DNA from: Candidatus Omnitrophota bacterium
GTDB taxonomy: Bacteria; Omnitrophota; Gorgyraeia; Aquiviventales; Aquiviventaceae
Direction of reading: 5' to 3'
NCBI GenBank assembly: GCA_016206565.1
Contig: JACQRG010000061.1
Span: forward strand, 1-39,350
DNA length: 39,350 bases
Shown here: positions 20,115 through 34,581 of the stretch, piece after piece
Numbering within the stretch: position 1 is the stretch's first letter
How the letters are laid out: each line of letters begins with the position of its first letter
Made by a program: the position numbers and the translations under genes
Notes under the pieces: model-generated
Databases searched by the model: none
Told to the model about the DNA's origin: nothing
What the model saw: only the letters and a program-made list of their open reading frames with translations

Positions 20115-20459
20115 ATGACCCCGGAGCGGCGCCTCCATCCTCGCGCTCGCGCTTACCGCCCGGTGCGGCTGCATCCCCGCGGCAGCCCGGCGGTGATTGA
20201 AACGCTGACCAAGGACCTCAGCGTCTGCGGCCTGCGCTGCCTGTGCCCCAAGCCGGTGCCGGTCGGCTTGCCGGTCAACGTCGAGCTGGTGCTTGGCCAG
20301 GGGCAGGAGCCGTTGTTCCTCGAGGGCAAGGCGGTGTGGTTCAGGACCCTGCCGGATAGCGAGCAATACGACCTCGGCGTCTCATTTCTTGACCTGAGCG
20401 AGCAAAAACGACGACGTCTGTCTGTGTATTTTGACTCTGTCGCAGCTGTTCCTGCCTAG
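20115..20459 (+). CDS. Single-domain PilZ protein (putative c-di-GMP receptor)
   Basis: RRLHPR (RxxxR) near the N-terminus and DLSVCG (D/NxSxxG) about 20 residues later. The size (114 aa) and beta-barrel pattern are typical of a stand-alone PilZ. Confidence 0.8.
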   Translation: MTPERRLHPRARAYRPVRLHPRGSPAVIETLTKDLSVCGLRCLCPKPVPVGLPVNVELVLGQGQEPLFLEGKAVWFRTLPDSEQYDLGVSFLDLSEQKRRRLSVYFDSVAAVPA

Positions 20460-20607: not shown

Positions 20608-20624
20608 AGAGGAGGTGAGAACGC

Positions 20625-20786: not shown

Positions 20787-20813
20787 GCCAGCAAGCCCAG
20801 GCACGGTTACGAC

Positions 20814-20854: not shown

Positions 20855-20856
20855 GC

Positions 20857-20885
20857 TTGCGTCCGTCGGTGAACGCCGCTATACT
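20857..20885 (+). promoter_or_regulatory. Sigma70-type promoter: TTGCGT - 17 nt - TATACT
   Basis: It lies immediately after the terminator T-tract and would direct transcription toward the 3' end of the convergent mazG gene. Confidence 0.4.
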
Positions 20886-20933: not shown

Positions 20934-21044
20934 GTGGTCCCGTTGTTCGACTTCGATCCTCGCCTCACCAACCTGGTGCTCGGCCTGGTAATCGGGCTCT
21001 GCCTGTCCCTGGTCTGGCACTGGGCGGCGTGGGCCCTGCACTAG
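20934..21044 (+). CDS. Possible 36-aa single-TM peptide (weak call)
   Basis: GTG at 20934 preceded by AAAGG. Translation: VVPLFDFDPRLTNLVLGLVIGLCLSLVWHWAAWALH. It lies downstream of the promoter above. The stop shares the CTAG tetranucleotide with the mazG stop. This could equally be a non-coding antisense transcript. Confidence 0.25.
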   Translation: MVPLFDFDPRLTNLVLGLVIGLCLSLVWHWAAWALH

Positions 21045-21571
21045 CCCCGCGCCAGCGCCCTGACCGCCCGCCGCAATCCGTCCGCAGCGCCGGGCCGGCG
21101 ATGCAGCAAGTCCCAGCACTCCACCAGCAGCGGCCGCAGCCGCTTGGACGCGGAGCGCGACCGAGTTTCCCGCCGTTTCACCGCCTGCCAGCGCCGGTAC
21201 GCCTCATCGGCTGACCTGGCCCGGACCCGGCCGAAGACATGGGGGTGGCGGCGGATCATCTTCCGGCGGGTGGCGCGCAGCAGCGAGCGCAGCGATCCCT
21301 GCCGGCGACGATCGGCCAGCAAGGCCAGGAAGACGACCGTGTAGAGCAGGTCGCCCAGCTCCTCTTCGAGCAGGGCGCGCTTGCCCCGGCCGCGGATGGT
21401 TTCGAACACTTCCCAGGTTTCCTCGATGAGGTAGGGCAGGAGCGACTCGACCGTCTGGGTCCGGTCCCAGGGGCAGCCGTCCGGCTCCAGCAGGCGCTGG
21501 GCCAGGGCCACCAGGTCCCAGAACGGGTCCCCTTGGGCCGGCGGGGGTATCGTGCGTGCGGTTTGACCCAT
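21041..21571 (-). CDS. mazG: MazG-family nucleoside triphosphate pyrophosphohydrolase
   Basis: GCPWDRTQT..SL..YLIEETWEVFE, EELGDLLY and RRHPHVFG. The start is set at the internal ATG 21571, giving a normal N-terminal length; an upstream ATG at 21637 is also possible. Confidence 0.85.
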   Translation of the reverse strand: MGQTARTIPPPAQGDPFWDLVALAQRLLEPDGCPWDRTQTVESLLPYLIEETWEVFETIRGRGKRALLEEELGDLLYTVVFLALLADRRRQGSLRSLLRATRRKMIRRHPHVFGRVRARSADEAYRRWQAVKRRETRSRSASKRLRPLLVECWDLLHRRPGAADGLRRAVRALARG

Positions 21572-21592
21572 GAGACAGGCGTATGGTATCAT
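21563..21592 (+). promoter_or_regulatory. Sigma70-type promoter: TTGACC - 18 nt - (TGg)TATCAT, embedded over the mazG start codon
   Basis: A good -35 and an extended -10 on the + strand. The complementary strand of the -10 region reads TATGAT, a possible -10 for mazG. Together these form a face-to-face divergent promoter pair. Confidence 0.55.
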
Positions 21593-21600
21593 ACTTTCTC

Positions 21601-21616
21601 TTAACGTGTTAACGTG
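21601..21616. repeat. Tandem direct repeat TTAACGTG x2 just downstream of the predicted transcription start
   Basis: Two exact, adjacent copies read directly from the sequence, located between the predicted TSS (~21599) and the SD of the small ORF. A regulatory role is inferred. Confidence 0.9.
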
Positions 21617-21625
21617 AGGGGGGAC

Positions 21626-21829
21626 ATGGGAATCCACAACCGTCCGGTAACCTGCGCCGCCACCAGCAAGCGGCTGCGGATGAAGACCTGGTTTTACCGC
21701 AACGGCAAGTACTACTACAACCGCCGCGCCTGGCAGGACGAGCAGGCCAAGGCGGCCAGCGAGGCCGCCAAGCCAAAGCCCGAAGCCGCGCCGGCTGAAG
21801 GCGAAGCCGGCGAAGCCAAGACCAAGTAA
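21626..21829 (+). CDS. Small basic hypothetical protein (67 aa) with an Ala/Glu/Lys/Pro low-complexity tail
   Basis: SD GAGGGGGG precedes ATG 21626. Translation: MGIHNRPVTCAATSKRLRMKTWFYRNGKYYYNRRAWQDEQ + AKAASEAAKPKPEAAPAEGEAGEAKTK. No family was recognised. It is the first ORF after the promoter. Confidence 0.45.
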   Translation: MGIHNRPVTCAATSKRLRMKTWFYRNGKYYYNRRAWQDEQAKAASEAAKPKPEAAPAEGEAGEAKTK

Positions 21830-21849
21830 TTCGCTCCTTAGCCAGTGTC

Positions 21850-22200
21850 ATGACCCCAAGTGAATGCCTCTTCTGCCGCATTGCCCAGCGGCAGCTTCCC
21901 GCCCGGATCGCGGGCGAGGAGGACGGCCTGCTGGCCTTCGAAGACGTCAACCCCCAGGCGCCGGTGCACCTGCTCATCATCCCGACTGAGCACCTTCCGA
22001 CGCTGGCCGACGCCACCCCGGCGCACACGCCGCTGCTGGGCCGGACCGTGCAGTTCGCCAACCGGCTTGCGCGCGAGCGCGGGCTCGGAACGGACGGCTA
22101 CCGGCTGGTGGTCAACTGCGGCGCAAAGGCCGGACAGAGCGTGTTCCACCTGCATTGGCATCTCCTGGGCGGGCGGTCCTTCCAATGGCCCCCGGGATGA
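21850..22200 (+). CDS. HIT-family (histidine triad, HinT-like) nucleotide hydrolase
   Basis: CLFCRI, NPQAPVHLLIIP and the histidine triad HLHWHLLGG. Confidence 0.92.
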   Translation: MTPSECLFCRIAQRQLPARIAGEEDGLLAFEDVNPQAPVHLLIIPTEHLPTLADATPAHTPLLGRTVQFANRLARERGLGTDGYRLVVNCGAKAGQSVFHLHWHLLGGRSFQWPPG

Positions 22201-22568
22201 TGGCCGATCGGCGCGAACGGCGTGCCAGCTCTAGGGCGTCGGAGCGCCTCTCGCTGGCCTTAGCCGGCGACGGCCGGGAGTGGACCGCTCAAACCAAGAA
22301 CATCAGCGCGTCCGGGGTGTATTGCGCCCTGGCGCAGTTCATCCCGCCGATGACGAAGCTGGCCCTGCGCTTCGCCCTGCCGCAGAACGGCCGGGACGTG
22401 CCGGTGCGCTGCACCGGGGTCGTCGTGCGCGTGGAGCCGGTCATCGCCGGCCCCCAGCAGGGTGCCTACCACATCGCGATCTTCTTCACCGACATCTCCG
22501 AGCGCGACCGCTCGGTGATCGGCCGGTTCGTCGCCCAGCGCCTCGCCGCAACCCCCTCGACCGATTGA
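22197..22568 (+). CDS. Single-domain PilZ protein (putative c-di-GMP receptor), second copy in the window
   Basis: ATGA overlap with the HIT gene. RRERRASSR (RxxxR region) and NISASG (D/NxSxxG). 123 aa. Confidence 0.75.
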   Translation: MMADRRERRASSRASERLSLALAGDGREWTAQTKNISASGVYCALAQFIPPMTKLALRFALPQNGRDVPVRCTGVVVRVEPVIAGPQQGAYHIAIFFTDISERDRSVIGRFVAQRLAATPSTD

Positions 22569-22574
22569 CGTCCC

Positions 22575-23426
22575 GTGTGGTGGCTGGCCGCGCTTCTGGG
22601 AACTGCCTGTGTGGGCTGGGGCGTGTTGGCTACGCGGCGCATCCTCTACCCCAAGCACCGGCCGGTCCTCGCGCCACAGCCGTTACCCTCCTATACGACC
22701 CATCTGTTGCGCGCCGCGGATGGCGCAGCCTTCGACGTCTGGCGCCTGCGTCCCGCCGAGGCGCGCGCCCACCTGGTGATGTGCCATGGCTACTACGCGA
22801 ACCGCTACCAGGTGCTGGGTGCGGCGCAGGGACTGCGTGAGCGCGGCTACGATGCGCTGCTGCTGGAGCTGCGGGGGCACGGCTCGCGCCCGGGTCCCTG
22901 CACCCTGGGGCTGCGCGAGGCGCAGGACGTGAGAACGATTCTGACATGGCTGCGCCAGGAGGAGGCCTCACGCCTGCCCGTCGCCCTGCTGGGCTTCTCG
23001 ATGGGGGCGGCGGTGGCCTGCCAGGCCGCGGCGCGCTATCCGCAGGTCAAAGCGGTCGTCACGGACTCGGTCTACGCCTCGTTCTTCGACGTGGTGCGCA
23101 TCAACATCCGCCGGCTCTACCGGCTGCCCGCGGTGCCGTTTGCTTGGCTGACCTGGGCCGCGCTGCAGGCGCGCTTCGCCGGCCGGCTGGGGGCGGCCGA
23201 CCCGGCGGCCTTGGCCCCGGCGCAGCATGCGTCGCTGCTGGCCATCCAGGGCGGGGCGGACCGGCATGTCACGCTGCCGGCGAGCGAACGGTTCTTTGCG
23301 CGATGGGCCGGCCCGAAGGAGCGATGGGTGGAGCCCCGCGTGGCGCACGTCGGCATGTATAAGCGGGACCCGCGCGAGTACTGCGACCGCGTGGCGGCGT
23401 TCCTGGACCGGGCGGTGGGGGGATGA
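22575..23426 (+). CDS. Membrane-anchored alpha/beta-fold hydrolase
   Basis: GTG start 6 nt after the PilZ stop. N-terminal TM segment, HG oxyanion region (VMCHGY), nucleophile elbow GFSMG, and later GGADRH / H near the C-terminus. It is a paralog of the ORF at 38362. Confidence 0.8.
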   Translation: MWWLAALLGTACVGWGVLATRRILYPKHRPVLAPQPLPSYTTHLLRAADGAAFDVWRLRPAEARAHLVMCHGYYANRYQVLGAAQGLRERGYDALLLELRGHGSRPGPCTLGLREAQDVRTILTWLRQEEASRLPVALLGFSMGAAVACQAAARYPQVKAVVTDSVYASFFDVVRINIRRLYRLPAVPFAWLTWAALQARFAGRLGAADPAALAPAQHASLLAIQGGADRHVTLPASERFFARWAGPKERWVEPRVAHVGMYKRDPREYCDRVAAFLDRAVGG

Positions 23427-25636
23427 CCATCTTCGACGTGCCGCATCCGAGAAACAAACCGGTGCTGCTCAAGCGCCTGCCCGTGTTCAGCGAGTGCAAT
23501 GAGAAGCAGCTGCTGTTCATCGCCGAGCGCACGCGCATCGTCGAGTACAAGAAGGGCGAGGCCGTGTACCGCGAGGGAGAGGCGGCCGCTTCGCTCTACA
23601 TCGTCGTCTCCGGACGGCTGCGCGTCTTCACGCAGGTCGGCGGGCGGGAAGCCACCGTCGCCATCCTCCACAACGGGGACTCCTTCGGCGAGGTTTCCCT
23701 GCTGACCGGCGAGAGCCACTCCGCGACCGTGCAGGCGCTCAACGACGCGCTCGTCCTGCAGCTGCTCAAGAGCGACTTCGAGGACGTCATCAACCGCATC
23801 CCCTCCCTCGTCCTCTCCCTGAGCCGCTCGCTCTCCAAACGGCTGCGCACGACGATGCACACGGGGGGTGCGACCGAAGCGACGATCGTGTCCATCTACA
23901 GCGCGGTCAAGGGGGTGGGCCGCACCCTCTTCGCCGCGGCCCTGGCCGCGATGCTCAAGCGCCATGCCGGCCTGGGCGTGCTGGTGGTGGACATGAACCC
24001 CGAAGGCGAAGAGCAGGCGCTGCTCCAGGGCACGCTTGCGCCGCCCTCGGTCATGCTCTCGGCGGCCTCCGGCGTGATGACCGAGGAGCAGCTGACGCAG
24101 GCGCTCTCCGAGCACCCGCTGGGGTTCAGCGTGCTGTCCATCGGCTCGGCCTTGGTCCAGCAGCAAGGCGACCAGGGAGTGGCGCCGCTCTTAAGCGAGC
24201 TCACCAAGCGCTTCGGCTATATCATCATGGACCTGCCGGTGGAGACCGCGCCGCACGTGCTCAAGGCCTTGACGCAGTCCGACGTGATCTACCTCATGAC
24301 CGACCAGCACCGCGACACGCTGGTCCGCACGAAGGCGCTCGTGCAGCGCGTGCAGGAGGCGATCGGCTTTATGGAGCAGCGCATCAAGGTTGTGGTCAAC
24401 CGGATGACCCGGCTCGGGATCGCCGTGAGCCTGGAGGAGATCAAGGAGGAGCTGGGCGCCTCCGTGGCGGTCTCGCTGCCGCAGCTCGAGGCCGAGCAGG
24501 CACGCGTCACGCTCAACGACCTGGCACAGCACCTCGGCAGCGAGACCTCGCTCTATGGGCGGGCGGTGCGCCGGGCGGCGCGCGACCTCTCGGGCACCGT
24601 GCTGGGACTAGCCTTAGGATCCGGCGCGGCGCTGGGGCTGGCGCACATCGGGGTCCTGAAGGTGCTGGAGCGGGAGCAGATTCCCATTGACATGATCGCG
24701 GGGACCAGCATCGGCGCGATGATCGGCGGGCTCTGGGCGTCGGGGCGCTCGGCCGCCCAGCTCGAGGAGATGGCGCTGCGGTTCAAGGACCCCTGGGATA
24801 TCCGGCGGCTCTTCATCTTGGACTTGGGGATTCCCATGGTCGCCCTGATCATCGGCACCCTCGCCGGCCTGGCGATCGGCGCCCTGGCCGGGTTCTGGAC
24901 CGGCCTGCTGTTCGGATTCATGGTCTGCGTCTCCACCGGCGTGGTGCTGGGGCCCCTGGCCGGCGGGCCGATCCAGGGGGCCGTGCTGGCGCGACGGCTG
25001 GAGGAGGATTTCAAGGGCAAGACGTTCGAGGATACCTGGCTGCCGCTCAAGATCGTCGCGGCCAACCCGATGGCGCGGGAAGAGGTGGTGTTCGACTCCG
25101 GCCGGATCGCGGAGGCGGTGCGGGCGTCGGTGTCCATCCCGGGGATCTTTAAGCCGGTGCGGCGCATGGGCAAGATCTGCCTCGATGGCGGGGTGGTGGA
25201 CCCGGTGCCGGTCGGGGTGCTCAAGCGCGCCGGCGCGAACCGGGTCATCGCGGTCAACGTGTTTCCGACCATGGCCGAGTTCCAGGCCTACCAGCAGGAG
25301 AGTGCGAGGCGCCGCCAGGAGCGGGAAGCGCGCATCACCTCGCGCAGCCTGCCGGTGCGCCTGCTCATCCGCCTGCGCCAGGAGCTGGTCAGCTCGGTGA
25401 CCCCGCTGATCTTCGACGTGATCATGCGCTCGATGCAGTTCATGGAGTACCAGATCGCCGAGGTCGCCTGCCATGACGCAGACCTGACGCTGCGCCCATC
25501 GCTGGCCGGCGCGCACTGGCTGGAGTTCTTCCATCCCGAACCGTTCATCCAGCGCGGGGAAGAGGTCGCGCTGCAGCACCTGCCGCAGCTCAAGCGCCTC
25601 GCCGGCATGACGGCGCCCGACGTTGACAAGGGATGA
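23423..25636 (+). CDS. Three-module protein: cyclic-nucleotide-binding domain + ParA/MinD/CpaE-like domain with degenerate Walker A + patatin-like phospholipase with an inserted hydrophobic hairpin
   Basis: The cNMP module is GEAVYREGE...LYIVVSGRLRV...FGEVSLLTGESHSATV. The ParA-like module is IVSIYSAVKGVGRTLFAAALAAML...VLVVDMNPEGEE...YIIMDLP...VIYLMTDQ...VVVNRM. The patatin module has LALGSGAALGLAHIGVLKVLE, the nucleophile GTSIG and the catalytic Asp DGGVVDPVPV. A ~50-aa Gly/Ala/Leu-rich two-TM insert (IPMVALIIGTLAGLAIGALAGFWTGLLFGFMVCVSTGVVLGPLAGG) follows the nucleophile elbow. Confidence 0.85.
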   Translation: MTIFDVPHPRNKPVLLKRLPVFSECNEKQLLFIAERTRIVEYKKGEAVYREGEAAASLYIVVSGRLRVFTQVGGREATVAILHNGDSFGEVSLLTGESHSATVQALNDALVLQLLKSDFEDVINRIPSLVLSLSRSLSKRLRTTMHTGGATEATIVSIYSAVKGVGRTLFAAALAAMLKRHAGLGVLVVDMNPEGEEQALLQGTLAPPSVMLSAASGVMTEEQLTQALSEHPLGFSVLSIGSALVQQQGDQGVAPLLSELTKRFGYIIMDLPVETAPHVLKALTQSDVIYLMTDQHRDTLVRTKALVQRVQEAIGFMEQRIKVVVNRMTRLGIAVSLEEIKEELGASVAVSLPQLEAEQARVTLNDLAQHLGSETSLYGRAVRRAARDLSGTVLGLALGSGAALGLAHIGVLKVLEREQIPIDMIAGTSIGAMIGGLWASGRSAAQLEEMALRFKDPWDIRRLFILDLGIPMVALIIGTLAGLAIGALAGFWTGLLFGFMVCVSTGVVLGPLAGGPIQGAVLARRLEEDFKGKTFEDTWLPLKIVAANPMAREEVVFDSGRIAEAVRASVSIPGIFKPVRRMGKICLDGGVVDPVPVGVLKRAGANRVIAVNVFPTMAEFQAYQQESARRRQEREARITSRSLPVRLLIRLRQELVSSVTPLIFDVIMRSMQFMEYQIAEVACHDADLTLRPSLAGAHWLEFFHPEPFIQRGEEVALQHLPQLKRLAGMTAPDVDKG

Positions 25637-25652
25637 GGCCGGCGGGTACGAT
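25623..25652 (+). promoter_or_regulatory. Sigma70-type promoter: TTGACA - 18 nt - TACGAT at the 3' end of the patatin gene, ahead of the beta-oxidation operon
   Basis: Consensus -35. SD GGGAG lies 5 nt before ATG 25676. Confidence 0.5.
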
Positions 25653-25675: not shown

Positions 25676-26869
25676 ATGCCCACTGAGATCGTGATCGTGG
25701 ACGGCGTGCGGACCCCGCAGGGAGTCTTCGGCGGGGCGCTCAAGCAGCTCACCGCCCAGCAGCTCGGCGAGGTGGCGGTGCGGGAGCTGCTCAAGCGCAC
25801 CAACCTCAAGCCCGCCCAGGTGGAGGAGACCATCTTAGGCTGCGTGGGCCAGCAGTCCGATGCGCCGAACATCGCCCGCGTCGTCGCACTGCGCGCCGGC
25901 ATCCCCAAAGAGGTGCCGGCGTTCACCGTCCAGCGCAACTGCGCCTCGGGACTGCAGGCCATCGTCAGCGCCTGCCAGAACCTGCTCTGCGGCGACCGCG
26001 ACATCCAGGTGGCGGGTGGCACGGAGAGCATGAGCACCGCGCCCTACGTCAGCCGGGATTTGCGCTGGGGCAAGCGGCTGCGGCATTCCGAGATGGTGGA
26101 TTCGGTCTGGGAGGGGCTCACCGACCCGGTCTGCGGCCAGATCATGGGCCAGACCGCGGAGAACCTGATCAAAGAGTTCGGCATCAGCCGCGCGGACCAG
26201 GACAAATTCGCGCTGCTCTCCCACCAGCGGGCGTTCAGGGCCACGCGCGAGAACCGGTTCAAGGACGAGCTCGTCCCCGTCATGGTGCCCAAGCGCGCGA
26301 TGGGCAAAGACCTGCCGCCGGAGCCCTTCACGCAGGATGAGGGCATCAACCCGGGCCTCAACGAGCAGCTGCTGGGCCAGTACCCGGCGGTGTTCACCGA
26401 GAACGGATCGGTGACGCCGGGCAACGCTTGCTTCAATGCGGACGGCGCGTCGGCGCTGCTGCTCATGTCCGCCGAGAAGGCCAAGGCGCTGGGCTACAAG
26501 CCGCTGGCCAGGGTCCGCGCGTGGGCCTTCGCCGGGCTGGAGCCGGAGCGCATGGGGCTGGGGCCGACCCTCTCGGTGCCGATGGCGCTGAAGAAAGCCG
26601 GCGCGGCGCTCAAGGATATCCAGCTCATCGAGCTTAACGAGGCGTTCGCCGCCACCTACCTGGCCTGCGAGAAGGTTCTGGGCTACAGCCGCGATATCTG
26701 CAACGTCAACGGCGGCGCCATCGCGCTGGGGCATCCGGTCGGGGCGACGGGGGCTCGCCTCACGGTCACCCTCCTGCACGAGATGAAGCGGCGCAGCCTC
26801 TCGCTGGGCCTGGCGACCGCGTGCGTCGGGGGCGGGCAGGGGGCCACCATCGTCTTCGAGCGCGCGTGA
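25676..26869 (+). CDS. Acetyl-CoA C-acyltransferase (thiolase)
   Basis: VDGVRTP, the active-site Cys region VQRNCASGLQAI, NEAFA, GGAIALGHPVGATGAR and CVGGGQG. Confidence 0.95.
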   Translation: MPTEIVIVDGVRTPQGVFGGALKQLTAQQLGEVAVRELLKRTNLKPAQVEETILGCVGQQSDAPNIARVVALRAGIPKEVPAFTVQRNCASGLQAIVSACQNLLCGDRDIQVAGGTESMSTAPYVSRDLRWGKRLRHSEMVDSVWEGLTDPVCGQIMGQTAENLIKEFGISRADQDKFALLSHQRAFRATRENRFKDELVPVMVPKRAMGKDLPPEPFTQDEGINPGLNEQLLGQYPAVFTENGSVTPGNACFNADGASALLLMSAEKAKALGYKPLARVRAWAFAGLEPERMGLGPTLSVPMALKKAGAALKDIQLIELNEAFAATYLACEKVLGYSRDICNVNGGAIALGHPVGATGARLTVTLLHEMKRRSLSLGLATACVGGGQGATIVFERA

Positions 26870-28092
26870 TGTACATCTACAAGACGGCGGTGGTGGGTGC
26901 CGGCGCGATGGGAGCGGACATCGCCCAGGTGATCACCTTCAGCGGCGTGCCGGTGCTGCTCAAGGACGTGGACCAGCATGCGGTGGACCACGGTCTTGAG
27001 GCGATCCGCACGGTCTATCGGCGCCGGGTGGACCGGGGCAAGATGACCCAGGACGAGCTGGAGAAGAAGATGGCCCTGGTCACCGGCGTGACGTCGTATG
27101 ACCAGTTCAAGGACGTGGACCTGGTCATCGAGGCGGTGCCGGAGCGCCTGGACTTAAAGCAGCGCATCTTCCGGGAGCTCGACGGGCTGCTGCCCGAGTC
27201 TTCCATCATCGCATCGAACACCTCCTCGCTCTCCATCTCGGCGCTGGGCGGGGCCACGAAGCGGCCGTCAAAAGTCATCGGGATGCATTTCTTCTATCCC
27301 GCGCACGTCATGAAATTGGTGGAAGTCATCCCCGGCCTGGACACCTCGGAGGAAACCGCCGGCGACATCACCGCCTTCGCCGAGAGCCTGCGCAAGCTGC
27401 CGGTGCGCGTCAACGAGTGCGCCGGCTTCCTGGTCAACCGCATCCTGATGCCGTACCTTAACGAGGCGGCCTGGTGCGTCCAGGAGGGGGCCGCGTCGGC
27501 GCGCCAGATCGACGAGGCCATGGTGGCCTTTGGATTCCCGATGGGCCCGTTCACCCTGGTGGACAACCTGGGCTTCGACGTCTGCCGCGAGGTGGTCAAG
27601 GTGCTGCTGGACGCCTACGGCTCGCGCATGGAGCCGGCGACGCTCTGGGAGCGGCTCTACGAGCTGAAGCGCTACGGGGTGAAGTCCGGCGCCGGGTTCT
27701 ACCTCTACGGCGACCGGGCCGGGCAGCCGGACGCCGACCTGGACCGGGTCCTCGCGCAGCTGAAGGCCCAGCATAAGGGCCCGGCCGAATTCAGCGTGAA
27801 CCGGCTGGTGCTGCCCATGATTAATGAAACCATTCGCTGCCTGGAGGAGCATGTCTGCACCGCGGCCGACGCCGACCTCTCGGTGGTGGCCGGCCTGGGG
27901 TTTCCGCAGGCCAAGGGCGGGCTGCTGCACTATGCGGACGAGGTGGGCTTGGACGTGGTGCTGGCCGAGCTGGAGCGGCTCACCAAGGCGTACGGCGAGC
28001 GGTTCTGGCCCTCGCCGCTGTTGAAGCGCAAGGTCGCCGCCGGGCATCTGGGCAAGAAGGCCCGCCGCGGCTTCTTTGAGTACACCGAGTGA
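26869..28092 (+). CDS. 3-hydroxyacyl-CoA dehydrogenase (NAD-binding + duplicated C-terminal domain)
   Basis: TGATG overlap. Rossmann motif AVVGAGAMGADIA, EAVPE.L.LK, SNTSSL, HFF.PA..M.LVE and GF.VNR. Confidence 0.92.
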   Translation: MYIYKTAVVGAGAMGADIAQVITFSGVPVLLKDVDQHAVDHGLEAIRTVYRRRVDRGKMTQDELEKKMALVTGVTSYDQFKDVDLVIEAVPERLDLKQRIFRELDGLLPESSIIASNTSSLSISALGGATKRPSKVIGMHFFYPAHVMKLVEVIPGLDTSEETAGDITAFAESLRKLPVRVNECAGFLVNRILMPYLNEAAWCVQEGAASARQIDEAMVAFGFPMGPFTLVDNLGFDVCREVVKVLLDAYGSRMEPATLWERLYELKRYGVKSGAGFYLYGDRAGQPDADLDRVLAQLKAQHKGPAEFSVNRLVLPMINETIRCLEEHVCTAADADLSVVAGLGFPQAKGGLLHYADEVGLDVVLAELERLTKAYGERFWPSPLLKRKVAAGHLGKKARRGFFEYTE

Positions 28093-28099
28093 GGGCCTG

Positions 28100-28891
28100 A
28101 TGCCGCTGCCATCCGGGGAGAACGTCAAGGCCAGCCTGGAGGAGCGCGTGGCGCTCATCACGATTGACCACCGGCCGGTCAACGCGCTCAACCGCCAGAC
28201 GCTGGAAGAGCTGGGCAAGGTCGCGGATGCGCTGGCCGCGGAGCCGGCAGCGAAGGCCGTGGTCTTAACCGGCGCCGGGTCGCTGGCGTTCGTCGCCGGC
28301 GCGGACATCAAGGAGGTTGCGCAGTTGGCCTCGCCGGAGCAGGCCAAGGCCATGGCCGCGCTCGGCCAGGCCGTGTTCCTGAAGCTCCAGCGGCTCAAGC
28401 TGCCGGTGATCGCCGCCATCAACGGGGTGTGCCTGGGCGGCGGGCTGGAGCTGGCGATGGCCTGCCACCTGCGCGTCTCCGGCGACCGGGCCAGGTTCGG
28501 CCAGCCCGAGGTCAACCTCGGCATCATCCCGGGCTGGGGCGGCACGCAGCGGCTGCCGCGCCTGATCGGCAAGGCCAAAGCCTTCGAGTGGATCCTCACC
28601 GGCGACGTGTACACGGCCCAGGAGGCGTTGCGCCTGGGGCTGGTCAACCTGGTCGTGCCCCAGGACCAGGTCCTCAAGGCGGCGAAGGATTTGGCGAAGA
28701 AGATCGCCGGCAAGGGCGCGGTGGCCGTCCAGCAGGCGCTGCGGGCCATCGAAGACGGGGCATCGCTGCCCTTAGAGCAGGGGCTGGCCAAGGAGGCCGA
28801 GGCGTTCGGCGACGTGGCGAAGAGCGAAGACAGCAAGGAGGGCGTGCGCGCCTTCCTGGAGAAGCGCCAGCCGCAGTTCAAGGACCGATGA
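28100..28891 (+). CDS. Enoyl-CoA hydratase (crotonase family)
   Basis: NALN, VVLTGAG..FVAGADI, INGVCLGGGLELAMACH and GQPEVNLGIIPGWGGTQRL. Confidence 0.92.
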   Translation: MPLPSGENVKASLEERVALITIDHRPVNALNRQTLEELGKVADALAAEPAAKAVVLTGAGSLAFVAGADIKEVAQLASPEQAKAMAALGQAVFLKLQRLKLPVIAAINGVCLGGGLELAMACHLRVSGDRARFGQPEVNLGIIPGWGGTQRLPRLIGKAKAFEWILTGDVYTAQEALRLGLVNLVVPQDQVLKAAKDLAKKIAGKGAVAVQQALRAIEDGASLPLEQGLAKEAEAFGDVAKSEDSKEGVRAFLEKRQPQFKDR

Positions 28892-30735
28892 GCGCCGTGC
28901 TAGGCAAGGGCTCGCCCGAGGCGCTTGAGGTCACCGAGGCCGCGCGCCAAGCGGAGTGGCAGTATCCAAGTTTCGTCGCCGGACTGTTCATGGGGCGGGT
29001 CCGCCAGGACCTGGTGTTCCCGTGCCCGGAGCAGCCTGAAGACGACCGGCGCGCCGGCGACGCGTTCCTCGCCGAGCTCGACGCCTTCCTGAAAGCCCAG
29101 GTGGACCCGGACGAGATTGACCGCACCGGCGAGCTGCCCGCCTCGGTCATCCAGGGCCTGGTCCGGCTGGGCTGCTTCGGCATGAAGATCCCCAAGGAGT
29201 ACGGCGGCCTGGGCCTCTCGCAGGCGAACTACGCCCGGGTCCTGACGCTGCTGGGAAGCCACTGCGCGTCCACCGCGGTGTGGCTCAGCGCCCACCAGAG
29301 CATCGGCGCCCCGCAGCCGCTGATGCTCTTCGGCACCGAGGAGCAGAAGCGCGCCTACCTGCCGCGCCTGGCACAGGGCACCATCTCCGCCTTCGCGCTG
29401 ACCGAGCCCGGCGTGGGCTCGGACCCGGCCAATATGCTCACGACCGCCACCCCCATCGAGGGCGGGGAACTCTACCTGCTCAACGGCGAGAAGCTCTGGT
29501 GCACGAACGGCCCGGTCGCCGACGTCGTGGTGGTCATGGCCCGCACGCCGTCGGTCATGGCAGGCGGCAAGGAGCGCAAGCAGATCACCGCCTTCATCGT
29601 CGAGAAGGCGATGCCGGGCGTCGAGGCGGTCCATCGGTGCGAGTTCATGGGCTTGAAAGGCATCCAGAACGGCGTGCTGCGCTTCACCAACGTGCGGGTG
29701 CCGAAGGGCAACATCATCTGGGGCCCGGGCCTGGGGCTGAAGCTCGCACTCGTGACGCTCAATGCAGGCCGCATCGCGATCCCCGCGGCGAGCGTTGGGG
29801 GTGCCAAGCGCTGCCTGCAGATCGTGCGGGGCTGGGCCAAGGAGCGCAAGCAGTGGGGCGGGCCGATCGGCAAGCACGAGGCGGTGGCGGCGAAGATCGG
29901 CGAGATGGCCGCCGCGACCTTCGCGATGGACGCCATGGTGACTATCACCTCGGCCCTGGTGGACCGCAAGAGCATTGACATCCGCCTGGAGGCGGCCATT
30001 GCCAAGCTGTACTGCTCGGAGGCTGCCTGGCGCATCGTGGACGACACGCTGCAGATCCGCGGCGGGCGCGGCTACGAGACCGCCGCGTCGCTGCGCGGGC
30101 GGGGGGAGCCGGGCATCGGCGTCGAGCGCATGCTGCGCGATTCCCGCATCAACCTCATCATCGAGGGCACGAGCCAGATCATGCGCCTCTTCATCGCCCG
30201 GGAGGCGCTGGATGCGCACATGCGCCTGGTCGGGGAGCTGCTGAGCCCGCACGGGGCGCCGGCCAAAAAGCTCGCCGCCGCGCTGCGCGCCATCATCCAC
30301 TACGCCGTGTGGTATCCCCGCCAGTGGCTGTTCTGGAGCGGCTGGCCGCGGTATGCGCATCTGCATCCGCGCCTGGCCGGCCACATGCGGTTCGTGGAGC
30401 GGACCAGCCACCGGCTGGCGCGCGCCCTCTTCCACGGGGCGGTCCGACATCAAACGCGCCTGGCCTATCGCCAGCAGCTGCTCGGGCGGCTGGTGGACGT
30501 CGGCGCGGAGCTCTTCGCCATGGTCGCGGCCTGCAGCAGGGCCCAAGCGCTCATCCGGCTGCAGCCGTCGGAGCAGAGCCCCGTCGAGCTGGCGGATGTG
30601 TTCTGCCGGCAGGCGCGCCGCCGCGTGGACAGCGCGCTGCGCTTAGCCGGCGACAATGAGGATCGGGCCGTCTATCAGATCGCGCAAGACGTCCTCGGCG
30701 GCCGCTATGAGTGGTTGGAGGAAGGCATTGTCTGA
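28888..30735 (+). CDS. Very-long-chain-type (VLCAD/ACAD9-like) acyl-CoA dehydrogenase with C-terminal extension
   Basis: ATGA overlap. SFVAGLFMGRVRQDLVFPCPE, GLGLSQANYARV, FALTEPGVGSDPA, LNGEKLWCTNG, IAKLYCSEAAWRIVDDTLQIRGGRGY and IIEGTSQIMRLFIA align by eye along the whole VLCAD architecture. The product is ~615 aa. Confidence 0.9.
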   Translation: MSAVLGKGSPEALEVTEAARQAEWQYPSFVAGLFMGRVRQDLVFPCPEQPEDDRRAGDAFLAELDAFLKAQVDPDEIDRTGELPASVIQGLVRLGCFGMKIPKEYGGLGLSQANYARVLTLLGSHCASTAVWLSAHQSIGAPQPLMLFGTEEQKRAYLPRLAQGTISAFALTEPGVGSDPANMLTTATPIEGGELYLLNGEKLWCTNGPVADVVVVMARTPSVMAGGKERKQITAFIVEKAMPGVEAVHRCEFMGLKGIQNGVLRFTNVRVPKGNIIWGPGLGLKLALVTLNAGRIAIPAASVGGAKRCLQIVRGWAKERKQWGGPIGKHEAVAAKIGEMAAATFAMDAMVTITSALVDRKSIDIRLEAAIAKLYCSEAAWRIVDDTLQIRGGRGYETAASLRGRGEPGIGVERMLRDSRINLIIEGTSQIMRLFIAREALDAHMRLVGELLSPHGAPAKKLAAALRAIIHYAVWYPRQWLFWSGWPRYAHLHPRLAGHMRFVERTSHRLARALFHGAVRHQTRLAYRQQLLGRLVDVGAELFAMVAACSRAQALIRLQPSEQSPVELADVFCRQARRRVDSALRLAGDNEDRAVYQIAQDVLGGRYEWLEEGIV

Positions 30736-32524
30736 CCGTCCGCCGGCCGACACGCTGCCGGCGCTCTTCGTCCAGCGCGCCGCCGCGTCAGGCCCCAAAC
30801 CCCTGTTTCTGGTCAAACGCGACGGCGCCTACCGGCCGATGTCCTGGCGGCAGGCTGCCGATGACGTCTGCGCGTTGGCGGCGTTCCTGCTGGAGCAGGG
30901 GGTCGCGGCCGGCGACCGGGCCGCGATTCTCTCGGAGAATCGTCCGGAATGGGGCATCGGCGACCTGGCCATCCAGTCCGTCGGCGCTTGGACGGTCCCG
31001 CTGTATCCCAGCCTGACGGCGCAGGACATCCACGGCATCTGCCGCGACTGCGAGCCGGTGGCGTGCGTCGCATCCACGGCAGAGCAGGCGCGCAAGATCG
31101 CCGAGATCCGCGCCGGCGTGCCGTCGCTGCGCGTCGTCATCGCTATGGACGGGGGGGCGGGCACGGTCTCCTGGGCCGACGCGCTGGCCAGGGGGCGGGC
31201 TGCGCTGCCGGCGCGCCGGGAGGAGCTGGACGCGCGCCGAAACGCCCTGCGCCCCGGCGACACGGCGACGCTGATCTACACCTCCGGCACCACGGGCGAG
31301 CCTAAAGGCGTCATGCTCTCCCACCGGAATTTCCTCTCCAATGTCCGGGCGAGCCTTGACGCCATCCCCATCTGCGGCGACGACCTGCACCTCTCGTTCC
31401 TGCCGCTGTGCCACGTGTTCGAGCGGATGGCCGGCTGGTACTTGATGCTCGACGTCGCAGCGACGGTGGCCTACGCCGAGTCCATGGACACCATCCCGGA
31501 CAACATGCGGGAGGTGCGCCCGACCGTGATGCTGGGCGTGCCCCGGTTCTTCGAGAAGCTCTACGCGCGCATCCAGGAGGCGCTGCGGCAGATGCCGCCT
31601 GCCAAGCAGCGGCTGGCGCGGTGGGCGATCCGGGTCGGGCAGCGGGCGGCGCAGGCGCGGGAGCAGCGCCGGCCCGTTCCGCCCGGGCTGGCCCTGCAGG
31701 TGTGGTTGGCCGACCGCCTCGTCCTGGAGAAGTTCCGCCGGCGCCTCGGCGGGCGGCTGCGCTTCTTCGTCTCCGGCTCAGCGCCCCTCTCGGCGGACAT
31801 CGGCCGGTTCTTCAGCGGCCTTGGTATCACCATCATCGAGGGCTACGGGCTGACCGAGACCTCGCCGGTGATCGCGGTGAACCGGCTCTCCCGTCCGAAG
31901 TTCGGCACGGTCGGTCCGCTCATTTCCGGGGTGGAGGTGCGCATCGCCGACGACGGAGAGATCCTGACGCGCGGCCCCCACGTGATGCAGGGCTACTACC
32001 GCAAGCCGGAGGAGACCGCGGCGGTGATCACGGACGGCTGGCTGCACACCGGCGACGTCGGGCATCTGGACGGCGACGGCCACCTGGTCATCACCGACCG
32101 CAAGAAGGACCTCATCAAGACCGCCGGCGGCAAATTCGTTGCGCCCCAGAAGCTCGAGAACCTGTTCGTCACCGACCCGTACGTCAGCCAGGCGTTCGTG
32201 TACGGCGACCGGCAGCGGTACTGCGTGGCACTCGTGGTGCCGAACATGGCCCGCCTCCGGGAATACGCCGCCTCGCAGGGCATCGCCGCCGCCGGCCCGG
32301 CCCAGCTGGTGCAGGATGCGCGCATCCGCGAGTTCTACTGGCAACGGGTCCAAGAGCGGCAAGGCGGCCTGGCGTCGTTCGAGCAGGTCAAGGCCATCGC
32401 TCTGCTGGACCAGGAGTTCACCCAGGCCGCCGGAGAATTGACCCCCACGCTGAAGGCCAAGCGCGGCGTGATCGCGCAGCGCTACGCCGAGGCGCTGCGC
32501 CGGCTCTACGAGCAGCCGGCGTGA
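30707..32524 (+). CDS. Long-chain-fatty-acid--CoA ligase (AMP-dependent synthetase)
   Basis: AMP-binding motif IYTSGTTGEPKGVMLSHRN, then EGYGLTETS, GWLHTGDVG and DRKKDLIKTAGGKFVAPQ. The start is either ATG 30707 (29-nt overlap) or TTG 30728, which is preceded by GGAGGAAGG. Confidence 0.9.
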   Translation: MSGWRKALSDRPPADTLPALFVQRAAASGPKPLFLVKRDGAYRPMSWRQAADDVCALAAFLLEQGVAAGDRAAILSENRPEWGIGDLAIQSVGAWTVPLYPSLTAQDIHGICRDCEPVACVASTAEQARKIAEIRAGVPSLRVVIAMDGGAGTVSWADALARGRAALPARREELDARRNALRPGDTATLIYTSGTTGEPKGVMLSHRNFLSNVRASLDAIPICGDDLHLSFLPLCHVFERMAGWYLMLDVAATVAYAESMDTIPDNMREVRPTVMLGVPRFFEKLYARIQEALRQMPPAKQRLARWAIRVGQRAAQAREQRRPVPPGLALQVWLADRLVLEKFRRRLGGRLRFFVSGSAPLSADIGRFFSGLGITIIEGYGLTETSPVIAVNRLSRPKFGTVGPLISGVEVRIADDGEILTRGPHVMQGYYRKPEETAAVITDGWLHTGDVGHLDGDGHLVITDRKKDLIKTAGGKFVAPQKLENLFVTDPYVSQAFVYGDRQRYCVALVVPNMARLREYAASQGIAAAGPAQLVQDARIREFYWQRVQERQGGLASFEQVKAIALLDQEFTQAAGELTPTLKAKRGVIAQRYAEALRRLYEQPA

Positions 32525-34581
32525 TGGAGGCCTTCTCCGAAGCCGAAGGCTCCTGGGGCCTGCCCGCCTCCGGCCAACGGCTCTTCGCGCGCCTCCTCAT
32601 CCCTGAGCCGTCGCAAGCCCTTCTTATCTTGGTGCATGGGTTCGGCGACCATGGCGGCCGCCACCTGGGCATGGCGCGGTGGCTCGCGCAGCAGGGCCTC
32701 GCCGTCGCCGTCCCGGATTTGCCTGGGCATGGCCGATCCGAAGGCCCCCGCGGACATCTGCCCTCCCTGGCGGCCTGCGTTGAGGGCTTGTCGCTGGCGG
32801 CGCGCCAGCGCTGGATGGCGGATGCCGGCCAGCCGCGGTTCAGCATCTTCGGCCATAGCTTCGGCGGGCTGGTGGCGGCCTCCTGGGTCCTGCGCCGGCC
32901 GGAGAGCCTTCATCGGGCGGTGCTGCAGGCGCCGCTGTTTGAAGCGGGCTTTCCCATCCCGGGCTGGAAGCGGGCCGCTGCCGCGGCACTCGGGCGCTGG
33001 TGGCCCTCGGCGCGCCTCTCGGTCGGTCTGGATCCTCAGTACCTGAGCCATGATCCGGCCGTGGTCGAGGCCTACCGGCGGGATCCCTTGGTGCAGCATG
33101 CGATGAGCGCCGGCACCTACCGTGATATGCTCCAAACCCGCGACGAGGCGCTGGCCCAGGCCCCTCAGGTGCGTGTTCCCGTCCTGCTGCTGTGCGCCGG
33201 AGATGACCGGGTTGTCTCCACGCCCGCGGCCCAGCGCTGGTTCGCCGGCCTGCGAGGCGAGAAGCGCGTCCAGCTGTTTCCCGGCGCCTACCACGAGCTC
33301 CACCACGAGCCGGTGCGTGAGCAGGCCTGGAAGCTGGTGAAAGAGTGGATCGTGGCCCTGGGGCTGCTGGTCGCCTGCGCCGGGACCGGCTGGGCGCAGC
33401 CGCAGGAGGGCGCGTCCGGCGCCACCGACTGGCCCGCGATGATCACCAAGCTGCGGGGCGAGGTGCACGACCACCCGGGGTTCGGCCGCCTGCGCGAGCA
33501 GCTGGCCACCGCGCATAACAACTACGGGGTCCAGCTGGCCTCAGCAGGGCAGTGGCGGCTGGCCCAGGAGCAGCTGCAGCAGGCCATCGAGCTCGACGGC
33601 GGCAACGAGCAATTCCGCCAGAACCTGGCCAGCGTTTACCTGCGCGAGGCGCAGCAGCTCTACGAGCAGCGCCAGGGCCGCGACGCCAGGACGCGGGCCG
33701 AGGAGGCGGTGAAGGTGAACCCGCAGCTCGCACAGGGCTATGCGCTCATCGGGCAGATCGAATATGAGGACCAACGCCTGAAGGAGGCCAGGGCGGCCTG
33801 GCAGCAGGCGCTGCAGCTGGATCCGGCGTTGACCGAACTGGCCGACCGGCTCTCCCGCCTCGATGAGGAGCTGCCGGTGGAGTCCGGCTTCCAGCGCATC
33901 TCGCAGGCGTTTTTCGATCTGCGCTACGAGGAACAGTTGGAGCGTCCGGTGGGATTTGACATCCGCGATGCGCTGCTGGAAGCGCGGCGCACCGTCGGCG
34001 GCGATTTCGCCTATTGGCCCAAGCACAAGATCGTGGTGCTGTTGTACAGCGCGGAGATCTTCCGCCAGCTGCGCCAGGAAACGCCGGAGTGGGTCGCGGG
34101 GCAGTACGACGGGAAGATCCGCATCCCGCTGCCGAATACGCACCTCGACGAGGGGATGGTCAAGCAGATCCTCTTCCACGAGTACACCCACGCCGTGGTG
34201 CACGACCTGGCACGGGATAAGTGCCCGGTGTGGTTCAACGAGGGGCTGGCGGAGCACGAGGGCGCCCGGCACGGCCCGCGCCGGCTGGAGCGGCTCATCG
34301 AGGCGTCGGCGACCAACGCTTTCATTCCGTGGGAGGAGCTGGACGGCGCCTTCTCGATGGCCCTGCCGGTCGAGCACGTGTCGCTGGCCTATCAGCAATC
34401 CCGCAGCATCGTGGCCTATCTGGTGGAGCGCTACGGGTTCTGGCGCATCCGCCGCCTCCTGGAGGCCCTTGCCGGCGGCGACGCGCTGCTGGAGGCCATG
34501 AGCCGCGAGTTCCGGACCAAGCCGGCCCGGCTCGAAGCCCAGTGGCGCGCCTGGCTGCCCGGCTTCCTGAAGTCCTCATGA
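32524..34581 (+). CDS. Apparent fusion: lysophospholipase/monoacylglycerol-lipase-type alpha/beta hydrolase + lipoprotein-like TM segment + TPR repeats + HExxH (peptidase MA-like) domain
   Basis: TGATG overlap with the ligase gene. The hydrolase part has LVHGFGDHGGRH, GHGRSEG, GHSFGG and YHELHHEP. The junction reads KEWIVALGLLVACAGTGW. TPR-like helices follow, then the metalloprotease motif HEYTHAVVHD ... FNEGLAEHE. There is no stop codon between the parts (685 codons). Confidence 0.75.
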   Translation: MEAFSEAEGSWGLPASGQRLFARLLIPEPSQALLILVHGFGDHGGRHLGMARWLAQQGLAVAVPDLPGHGRSEGPRGHLPSLAACVEGLSLAARQRWMADAGQPRFSIFGHSFGGLVAASWVLRRPESLHRAVLQAPLFEAGFPIPGWKRAAAAALGRWWPSARLSVGLDPQYLSHDPAVVEAYRRDPLVQHAMSAGTYRDMLQTRDEALAQAPQVRVPVLLLCAGDDRVVSTPAAQRWFAGLRGEKRVQLFPGAYHELHHEPVREQAWKLVKEWIVALGLLVACAGTGWAQPQEGASGATDWPAMITKLRGEVHDHPGFGRLREQLATAHNNYGVQLASAGQWRLAQEQLQQAIELDGGNEQFRQNLASVYLREAQQLYEQRQGRDARTRAEEAVKVNPQLAQGYALIGQIEYEDQRLKEARAAWQQALQLDPALTELADRLSRLDEELPVESGFQRISQAFFDLRYEEQLERPVGFDIRDALLEARRTVGGDFAYWPKHKIVVLLYSAEIFRQLRQETPEWVAGQYDGKIRIPLPNTHLDEGMVKQILFHEYTHAVVHDLARDKCPVWFNEGLAEHEGARHGPRRLERLIEASATNAFIPWEELDGAFSMALPVEHVSLAYQQSRSIVAYLVERYGFWRIRRLLEALAGGDALLEAMSREFRTKPARLEAQWRAWLPGFLKSS

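Follow-up and report, generated by a model that had tools for sequence, protein, structure and literature searches.

A lipase with CNB, MinD-like and patatin domains in a conserved, probably lipid-catabolic operon of Omnitrophota

Introduction

Enzymes that join a cyclic nucleotide-binding (CNB) domain to a patatin domain are already known in eukaryotes and annotated in bacteria. In the NTE family (PNPLA6-PNPLA7; Nte1 in yeast), CNB-type domains precede a patatin domain that is anchored in the membrane and has a Ser-Asp dyad. Here we analyse a contig of 39,350 bp with roughly 70% G+C (JACQRG010000061.1; below, the window is this whole stretch of DNA), which encodes a protein of 737 aa with the same general design (23423..25636, plus strand). 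NCBI lists an identical protein for a Candidatus Omnitrophica metagenome-assembled genome, and JGI labels the homologues "NTE family protein". The gene of the 737-aa protein is the last of five that had been predicted from the DNA sequence to form an operon in which nucleotide-type sensor domains are coupled to lipolytic enzymes. Our analysis agrees with this coupling. It turned out that the five genes are probably the 5' third of a lipid-catabolic operon of about 13 kb (about 21.56–34.58 kb of the window). We do not regard the locus as a new system of immunity or signalling.

The original prediction compared the 737-aa protein with eukaryotic NTE, and we consider this analogy apt. In most Omnitrophota relatives a glycerophosphodiesterase (GDPD) gene is adjacent, as in the Nte1 to Gde1 route. 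In the assays of one study the CNB domains of NTE were reported not to be essential (PMC9319352). Unlike NTE, which has three CNB domains and is anchored by an N-terminal helix, the 737-aa protein has one CNB domain, an extra MinD/ParA-fold domain between it and the patatin domain, and a probable hairpin anchor inside the patatin domain. Its patatin domain is also nearer to bacterial RssA and PlpD, and its gene lies in a beta-oxidation operon together with a PilZ gene.

Among bacterial proteins, Rv2565 and Rv3728 of Mycobacterium tuberculosis are cNMP-binding proteins. They have been listed as hypothetical lipolytic enzymes (PMC10865251). Compared by description only, they are like the 737-aa protein in being bacterial fusions of a CNB domain with an NTE/patatin-type esterase. 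Unlike them, the 737-aa protein has His in place of the Arg of the phosphate-binding cassette. To our knowledge, neither a MinD-like middle domain nor an operon context with PilZ, HIT, small-protein and beta-oxidation genes has been described for Rv2565 or Rv3728. The catalytic domain finds its best sequence and structure matches in RssA (YchK) and PlpD, which share its GxSxG and DGG motifs. RssA consists of a single domain (301 aa) and PlpD is the secreted passenger of a type-Vd autotransporter, whereas the 737-aa lipase carries sensor domains and a 42-aa hydrophobic insert.

Nothing specific on a bacterial operon or protein of this design came up in literature searches. In particular, the searches gave no description of an inserted MinD-like pseudo-ATPase, a phylum-wide Arg-to-His change in the cassette, a membrane hairpin or a fixed partnership of PilZ, the small protein and beta-oxidation. 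Omnitrophota are uncultured, mostly ultra-small and suspected of being predatory or parasitic (PMC10066038). In a word search, two phylum-wide genomic surveys of Omnitrophota left patatin, phospholipases and PilZ unmentioned and named short-chain fatty acids only in passing. The conserved operon suggests that one large clade manages membrane lipid, its own or that of a host, as a source of carbon and energy. The cluster offers a concrete, testable case of cyclic di-GMP (c-di-GMP), through PilZ, being wired to lipid turnover. In addition, a CNB domain with a phylum-wide Arg-to-His change is of interest for the enzyme family NTE/PNPLA6-7 and its CNB domains.

Results and Discussion

The five genes are followed by a complete beta-oxidation set

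The five open reading frames (ORFs) described earlier are present in the window with their 4-nt overlaps and 6-nt gap. Every domain named in them was found again, by Pfam or, in the case of the MinD/ParA-fold domain, by an AlphaFold model and Foldseek. All of the five lie on the plus strand, and their content, order and tight spacing are read directly from the DNA. The first encodes a small basic protein of 67 aa (21626..21829, from the ATG at 21626; alternative start 21614). A HIT gene (116 codons, 21850..22200) starts 20 nt after it and overlaps through ATGA with a gene for a single-domain PilZ protein (123 aa, 22197..22568). After a 6-nt gap comes the gene of a 283-aa alpha/beta-hydrolase (22575..23426; Pfam Abhydrolase_1 6e-16, Hydrolase_4 7e-16), which overlaps the 737-aa gene by 4 nt. 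The hydrolase has an N-terminal hydrophobic anchor in hydropathy plots and a GFSMG nucleophile motif. In the PDB it matches the esterase 5g59 (2.4e-9), and it is esterase/lipase-like.

The genes, coordinates and domains of the predicted operon thus stood, and its extent did not: it had been ended too early. The 737-aa gene is followed on the same strand by six more genes, joined by overlaps or by gaps of at most 39 nt, and this co-directional tight packing runs for another 9 kb. After a 39-nt gap there is a FadA-like thiolase gene (397 codons, 25676..26869; Pfam Thiolase_N 1.1e-78, Thiolase_C 8.8e-45), whose stop codon is overlapped by 1 nt by the ATG of a 3-hydroxyacyl-CoA dehydrogenase (HCDH) gene (26869..28092; 3HCDH_N 7.3e-61). 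An enoyl-CoA hydratase (ECH) gene follows after 7 nt (28100..28891; ECH_1 1.4e-69) and overlaps through ATGA with the gene of an acyl-CoA dehydrogenase (ACAD) that has, by Pfam, the ACAD9/VLCAD-type C-terminal domain ACADV_C (28888..30735). The acyl-CoA synthetase (ACS) gene (30707..32524; AMP-binding 1.1e-79) starts at 30707 or 30728, both inside the preceding gene. These five genes, at 25676-32524, cover the FadD, FadE, FadB and FadA functions. The last gene (32521..34581) overlaps the synthetase gene and encodes a homologue of monoacylglycerol lipase (MGL) and lysophospholipase (Hydrolase_4, aa 30-264, 3.8e-60). Its best PDB matches are monoacylglycerol lipases, namely 6qe2 (3.7e-36), 6eic from M. 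tuberculosis (3.4e-29) and human MGLL (1e-22).

The string of about 13 kb therefore combines a complete beta-oxidation set with three lipolytic hydrolases. Because six lipid genes continue downstream on the same strand, we regard the five genes as its front. We infer that the whole string is co-transcribed.

The gene order is conserved in related Omnitrophota

More than 120 full-length homologues of the 737-aa protein, with 56–69% identity, were found, essentially all of them in Omnitrophota. To describe the neighbourhoods, we took 79 loci from GTDB species representatives (numbered with the letter L where one has to be named), with 10 kb on either side of each homologue, and scored them with iterative hidden Markov models of every window gene. 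The denominators below are the informative loci. At an identity of at least 45% there were 17 of them for the upstream genes and 13 for the downstream genes; at 34–39% identity, 10 and 9.

In the closer relatives, the small ORF, HIT and PilZ genes were each found in all 17 loci. HIT and PilZ, whose conservation as neighbours had been proposed as a check, are therefore constant there. At 34–39% identity the small ORF and PilZ were each found in 8 of 10 loci and HIT in 4 of 10, and the PilZ gene directly abuts the patatin gene. Three genes are less regular in the closer group: GDPD, which lies directly 5' of the patatin gene (15/17), the alpha/beta-hydrolase (13/17) and SAM_HAT (12/17). Downstream, the thiolase, HCDH, ECH and ACS genes accompany the lipase, in conserved order, in 13 of 13 close relatives, ACAD in 11 and the MGL-like gene in 10. 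The corresponding figures for the distant group are 8/9 for the MGL-like gene, 7/9 for ACS, 3/9 for thiolase and for HCDH, and 2/9 for ECH. The Pfam-annotated metagenome contigs of three homologues, with independent gene calls, have the same order as the window: small ORF, HIT, PilZ, optionally alpha/beta-hydrolase, SAM_HAT and GDPD, patatin, thiolase, HCDH, ECH, ACAD, ACS. The genes of the original prediction thus do form a conserved unit, as it had proposed.

SAM_HAT is a SAM hydroxide adenosyltransferase, which cleaves S-adenosylmethionine (SAM) to adenosine and methionine. Its gene lies between the PilZ and GDPD/patatin genes (L001 4506-5300; L003 4470-5258; L004 4476-5285) and is absent from the window. 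No role in lipid catabolism readily suggests itself for it, and it is intriguing beside a CNB domain without the phosphate-binding Arg.

A PilZ-less variant (L035) has an ETF-QO-like oxidoreductase gene between the patatin and ACS genes. The window encodes the MGL-like domain, TPR repeats and a Peptidase_MA domain in one ORF of 686 codons (32521-34581). L035 has the TPR/Peptidase_MA part as a gene of its own, 5' of Era and patatin. The window ORF is either a real fusion or an artefact of assembly or a frameshift.

The patatin domain of the 737-aa lipase carries a probable membrane hairpin

The patatin domain occupies aa 394-726 (24602..25600) and is matched by Pfam at 8.1e-31, above the cut-off. 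Its catalytic motifs are intact and lie in invariant columns: the oxyanion loop GSGAALG, which has no usual Arg or Lys, the nucleophile G427-T-S429-I-G431 and the catalytic D588-G-G. The best matches are PlpD (5fqu, 3.8e-39) and RssA (3.4e-33), and Foldseek also points to PlpD (TMt 0.62–0.67). Both the motifs and the fold of PF01734 are thus found, and the protein is predicted to be an NTE/RssA-like patatin acyl-hydrolase with presumed lipid substrates. The AlphaFold model used here was built from a 20-sequence alignment and has a mean pLDDT of 61.

Within the domain there is a hydrophobic, Gly-rich segment, aa 460-515 (24800..24967), with Kyte-Doolittle values above 2, which forms a hairpin of two long helices in the model. 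It contains an insertion of about 42 aa, so that the spacing between the catalytic Ser and Asp is 161 residues here versus about 119 in all other clades. The segment is limited to the subclade at an identity of at least 55%. The hairpin is probably a membrane anchor. Since the protein has no signal peptide and two N-terminal domains of cytoplasmic type, its most likely place is the cell's own membrane, on the cytoplasmic face. We also considered whether the lipase is unusually well conserved and rejected this, because its median identity is 59% versus about 78% for the neighbouring beta-oxidation enzymes.

The CNB domain has lost the phosphate-clamping arginine

The N-terminal domain (aa 15-145, 23465..23857) has the CAP-type CNB fold (Pfam cNMP_binding, 4.5e-24). 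Its PDB matches are PKG, PKA-R and CRP, down to 1e-33. The barrel fold is recovered by the profile; the AlphaFold model is poor in this domain (pLDDT about 30), so that both the fold assignment and the Arg-to-His call rest on sequence. The phosphate-binding cassette reads FGEVSLLTGESHSAT (FGEVSLLTGESH99SAT). In place of the clamping Arg (Arg82 of CAP, Arg209 of PKA RI-alpha) it has His99, encoded at 23717-23719, and the translation was checked. In sequence alignments His99 falls on CAP Arg82 and on the arginines of PKG. The cassette keeps Gly89-Glu90 and Ser100-Ala101.

According to the original prediction, the hypothesis depended on the ligand-contacting residues of the CAP-like domain. By this standard the hypothesis is partly refuted: the phosphate-binding Arg, the canonical cNMP contact, is replaced by an invariant His. 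His99 was found in 20 of 20 aligned homologues and in every Omnitrophota homologue examined, in a motif table scored on whole ORFs. Some distant Omnitrophota lose the Gly-Glu pair as well. Elusimicrobia homologues keep the cassette Arg in 3 of 4 cases (L059, L060, L064) and have Trp in the fourth (L070). Because an invariant His replaces the phosphate clamp, cAMP or cGMP is doubtful as the ligand. The replacement is fixed and not drifting, and for this reason we consider an altered ligand more likely than no ligand. A similar change has been described for trypanosomatid PKA, where replacement of the cassette Arg and of a second position makes the domain bind inosine, guanosine and adenosine instead of cAMP (PMC10959531). 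The Omnitrophota cassette likewise has both positions altered. The residues differ (Ala to Glu and Arg to Thr/Asn in trypanosomatids, Ala to Ser and Arg to His here), and His could still contact a phosphate.

The middle domain is a probable MinD-like pseudo-ATPase

Between the CNB and patatin domains, at aa 152-390 (23876..24592), Foldseek on the AlphaFold model finds a MinD/ParA fold: MinD 1hyq with TMt 0.80 (rmsd 3.8) and ParA 3ea0 with TMt 0.77. The pLDDT of this domain is about 75–85. Pfam AAA_31/CbiA matches it at 1.2e-5, below the gathering score, and the best NCBIfam family is CpaE/Ssd (3.5e-12). The Walker A motif is KGVGRT instead of KGGxGK[ST]. It reads [KRTGE]GVG[RQC][TS] in close relatives and is still more degenerate in distant ones. 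Without the P-loop Lys it is not a deviant Walker A motif either. The domain is probably a pseudo-ATPase of the CpaE/TadZ lineage. Like CpaE/TadZ/Ssd, it combines the MinD/ParA fold with the family match. Unlike them, it has no GK[ST] lysine and is fused between CNB and patatin domains, not placed in pilus or division positioning. Only 43 of 1.84 billion representative proteins match the domain at E<=1e-10. The stronger matches are mostly proteins of 650–750 aa with the domain at the same position. Next come CpaE/TadZ-like proteins of about 400 aa, its closest free-standing relatives, in which the domain has a TadZ-like position (residues 140-340).

Taken together with the cassette, this domain allows a speculative proposal, which we hold to be improbable as it stands. 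The CNB domain would sense something other than cAMP or cGMP, for example a non-cyclic purine nucleoside or nucleotide as in trypanosome PKA, while a PilZ protein that reads c-di-GMP would dock on the MinD-like domain, so that two signals control the consumption of membrane lipid. The purine ligand would perhaps be supplied or removed by HinT, MazG and SAM_HAT, which travel with the cluster. If this were true, the 737-aa protein would be a tractable bacterial model for the unexplained CNB domains of NTE-family lipases, and two-signal lipid control would exist in ultra-small, possibly host-dependent bacteria.

The upstream genes encode a small basic protein, HinT and PilZ

An orthologue of the small protein was found immediately 5' of HIT/PilZ in 25 of 27 informative loci. 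Its core is P-T-x-C..KR[LI]xRKxWYYR[ND]GxYF, followed by a tail rich in Ala, Lys and Glu. In the window the core is a degenerate FCS-like zinc ribbon (..TC..KRL..K.WFYRNGKYY..), for which a Pfam scan gave no match. A relative with four Cys matches zf-FLZ at a sub-threshold 2e-4. Some species have this four-Cys, FCS-like form (CxxC...CxxxC), a distant clade has two Cys and the window has one (21626-21829, compared with L019 6564-6767 and L029 8956-9225). Since the number of Cys varies while the basic WYYRNGxYF core stays constant, zinc binding appears to be dispensable for the role of this protein.

The HIT protein (Pfam HIT, 1.6e-24) had been suggested as the signal-degrading arm of the system. 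Its best NCBIfam match is purine nucleoside phosphoramidase (2.7e-31, below the strict equivalog cut-off). It has the HxHxHxx triad, with the signature HxHxHLLGGR...WPPG, and a HinT/HINT1-like C-terminus, HLHWHLLGGRSFQWPPG, that is kept across orthologues. By these features it is an ordinary HinT, that is, a histidine-triad nucleoside phosphoramidase of the HinT/HINT1 type. The substrates of HinT/HINT1 are nucleoside phosphoramidates and acyl-adenylates, not cyclic nucleotides, and we know of no HinT family member that cleaves cyclic nucleotides. A protein of this type, which several distant versions of the cluster lack, makes a poor candidate for the degrader, and the suggestion was not borne out.

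The PilZ protein (Pfam PilZ, 3.8e-12) has both c-di-GMP motifs, RxxxR and [D/N]xSxxG, intact, as is seen directly in RRERR...NISASG. RRxxxR and [DN]xSxxG are kept in 36 orthologues. As no orthologue has lost RRxxxR or NxSxxG, the protein likely binds c-di-GMP.

Homologues outside the phylum have other neighbours. A Leptospiraceae lipase (L061 8551-11707) has a divergent DUF1577-PilZ gene as its immediate neighbour. An Elusimicrobia three-domain lipase (L059 9315-12043), one of those that keep the cassette Arg, has a NUDIX hydrolase gene upstream. Nucleotide-hydrolase and PilZ neighbours outside the phylum were considered as a pattern and rejected, since NUDIX (in one Elusimicrobia) and DUF1577-PilZ (in one Leptospiraceae) do not recur in the other loci analysed. 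In Elusimicrobia L059, L060 and L070 there is a second patatin gene on the opposite strand; in L060 and L070 it lies immediately next to the lipase gene.

It is possible, though we doubt it, that only the genes from patatin to the MGL-like gene form a lipid unit. The small protein, HIT and PilZ would then be housekeeping or signalling genes without a link to it, kept in place by descent and small-genome packing, and the CNB and MinD-like domains would be structural or dimerisation modules with no ligand. This explanation is favoured by the nature of HinT, a ubiquitous housekeeping enzyme lost from 6 of 10 distant versions of the cluster, and by the shallow divergence of the close relatives. 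The CNB pocket without Arg, the lack of Gly-Glu in some clades and the degenerate Walker A motif also agree with it. Moreover, genes for Era, YqeY and a TPR-peptidase stay near the patatin gene in distant relatives too, which indicates deep background synteny. However, the small protein and PilZ genes remain directly 5' of the patatin gene at 34–39% identity, even in loci with reshuffled intervening and downstream genes, and 4-nt start-stop overlaps join HIT to PilZ and the alpha/beta-hydrolase to patatin. Cassette residues Ser92 and His99 are invariant and not drifting, which argues for a selected pocket. Finally, an unrelated PilZ protein adjoins the Leptospiraceae homologue.

The window contains no signal generator

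The original prediction likened the locus to CBASS effectors of the CapV type. On this explanation, or on a Pycsar-like variant of it, a cyclic nucleotide made elsewhere would activate a membrane-destroying patatin, and HIT would clear the signal. The locus does share the general logic of CBASS CapV and Pycsar, a nucleotide-binding module with a membrane-active effector. The lipase joins a CNB domain to a patatin whose catalytic dyad is intact, a PilZ protein with intact motifs is encoded next door, and PADLOC matches the CNB domain to Pycsar effector (PycTIR) models at 7e-15 and HIT to ThsC at 2.5e-9. The generic CNB domain is the sole source of the Pycsar matches in the lipase, and a weak 'PycC' match falls on the CNB region of the lipase itself.

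Other evidence largely refutes this explanation, and we regard it as extremely improbable. The CapV-type PADLOC models cover about 55 residues (396-450) at 4.5e-4 to 2.7e-3, which makes the similarity marginal. No CD-NTase, PycC, class III cyclase, GGDEF, EAL or HD-GYP was found among the window ORFs scanned with Pfam and PADLOC, nor was a CD-NTase found in the Pfam-annotated contigs of three relatives. The earlier observation that the window has no signal generator was thus reproduced: Pfam scans of the plausible genes show only housekeeping genes and the lipid cluster. Neither an adjacent cyclase nor a full-length CapV match, by which CBASS/CapV and Pycsar systems are recognised, is present. 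In contrast to those systems, the CNB domain has an invariant His instead of the phosphate-clamping Arg, and the HIT protein is an ordinary HinT absent from several cluster versions. The flanks are core genes (TrpBA, LepA, Der, PlsY, AroB, PolX, Era), the synteny extends over dozens of species and the genes run directly into beta-oxidation, which is the opposite of a mobile, patchy island. The operon is vertically inherited and lies in a housekeeping region. The combination of a nucleotide sensor and a patatin should not be taken as defence before the downstream genes and flanks are checked.

Proposed pathway and its substrate

We propose that the operon encodes the regulated breakdown of membrane lipid. 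The NTE/RssA-like lipase, held by its hairpin at the cytoplasmic face of the membrane, would strip acyl chains from phospholipids or lysophospholipids. The membrane alpha/beta-hydrolase and the MGL homologue would complete the deacylation, and in most relatives GDPD would split the leftover glycerophosphodiester. The sequence of patatin and GDPD mirrors the deacylation of phosphatidylcholine by eukaryotic NTE/Nte1 and then Gde1, as in yeast. The freed fatty acids would be activated by the acyl-CoA synthetase and oxidised by the thiolase, hydroxyacyl-CoA dehydrogenase, enoyl-CoA hydratase and VLCAD-like dehydrogenase. The lipid may come from the cell's own membrane, during remodelling or starvation, or from a host or prey.

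The timing of breakdown would be set by the sensors, namely PilZ, the CNB domain and the MinD-like pseudo-ATPase domain of the lipase. The co-translated PilZ protein probably reports c-di-GMP and regulates the lipase by contacting it, with the MinD-like domain as a speculative docking surface. The small protein perhaps also acts on the lipase by direct contact, and the CNB domain would add a second input. The PilZ-lipase contact and the identity of every ligand are inferred. We consider the operon logic reasonably probable and hold the regulatory details with less confidence.

A number of observations weigh against this proposal. The neighbours differ in Omnitrophota at 30–33% identity and in Elusimicrobia, Leptospiraceae and Wallbacteria, and the window itself has neither the GDPD nor the SAM_HAT gene of most relatives. 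The close relatives have diverged little (about 78% identity in the beta-oxidation enzymes), so that some of the synteny may reflect recent common descent, and the 34–39% group carries most of the weight for a functional linkage. A promoter-like site at the patatin stop codon, described below, could uncouple the beta-oxidation genes from the sensor and lipase genes.

The trio of patatin, hydrolase and MGL-like enzyme fits the lipolysis of neutral lipid equally well. With the same operon logic, the substrate would be stored or scavenged tri-, di- or monoacylglycerol or wax ester, degraded in a cascade like that of ATGL, HSL and MGL and fed into beta-oxidation. The presence of a patatin, an alpha/beta-hydrolase and a clear MGL homologue in one operon ahead of ACS and beta-oxidation is what such a cascade would need, and the window has no GDPD gene. 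But GDPD, which acts on glycerophosphodiesters, is encoded directly 5' of patatin in 15 of 17 close relatives, the patatin domain is closest to the phospholipases PlpD and RssA, and the literature ties the NTE-like CNB-patatin architecture to phospholipid and lysophospholipid substrates. Apparently, neutral lipid is an unlikely main substrate.

Promoters and gene junctions

A single good promoter had been described for the operon, and it was found at 21563..21592: a sigma-70-like TTGACC-18-TGgTATCAT with 10 of 12 matches and a TG extension. The surrounding 11 kb contain 4 promoter-like sites versus 0.6 +/- 0.8 in shuffled sequences. Four relatives (L003, L020, L031, L079) have TTGACC-17/18-TAT[CG]AT again 5' of their small-ORF orthologue. 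In the window this promoter overlaps a divergent promoter-like site (21612-21583, minus strand) for the gene of a MazG nucleoside-triphosphate pyrophosphohydrolase (21041..21637, minus strand; Pfam MazG 1.7e-20, NCBIfam 1.4e-36). The MazG gene, which is divergent from the operon, is present in a subset of relatives only, and its translation probably begins inside the ORF, at 21592 or 21571.

The second promoter-like site, TTGACA-18-TACGAT at 25623..25652 (plus strand), spans the stop codon of the patatin gene and might serve the beta-oxidation genes as an internal promoter. The patatin and thiolase genes are not always separable, since they overlap in L001. No terminator-like site was found at any gene junction from the small ORF through the MGL-like gene. 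The only plus-strand terminator-like site inside the cluster is a weak stem of 5 pairs within the alpha/beta-hydrolase gene. We also considered, and rejected, an RNA element hidden in the leader or the AT-rich region of 20.4–21.9 kb, for example a c-di-GMP riboswitch: Rfam gave nothing there at the gathering score and only chance-level matches at E<1. A search for tRNA and tmRNA found none.

Other genes and elements near the operon

The other window ORFs are, by Pfam, RadC, TrpB/A, Rpe, LepA, PgsA, Der, PlsY, AroB, PolX, Era, YqeY and similar genes. PgsA, a CDP-alcohol phosphatidyltransferase, and PlsY, a glycerol-3-phosphate acyltransferase, are encoded at 13370-13912 and 14995-15870, on either side of the GTPase gene Der. 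These phospholipid-biosynthesis genes lie 6–8 kb upstream of the lipid-catabolic operon, probably by coincidence, as part of the core-genome synteny.

A second single-domain PilZ protein with RRxxxR and DxSxxG motifs is encoded at 20115..20459 (plus strand; Pfam PilZ 2.3e-13). It is divergent from the gene of an ExeA-like AAA ATPase (19209-20027, minus strand; TIGR03015, XrtA/PEP-CTERM-associated ATPase, 1.9e-91, just under the cut-off). This divergent pair is kept in most relatives, and distant relatives have two tandem PilZ genes at the same site.

An AT-rich island at 20460-20860 has about 59% G+C versus 70% for the genome and no Rfam family match. It contains a promoter-like site, TTGACT-18-TAGACT at 20513-20542, and a strong GAGGAGG ribosome-binding site, and 3' of these lies the gene of a 53-aa hydrophobic peptide (20625-20786). 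The best intrinsic terminator of the region, with a 16-bp stem and a T-run, is at 20814-20848. Similar genes of 47–52 codons sit after the first PilZ gene in L001, L003 and L004.

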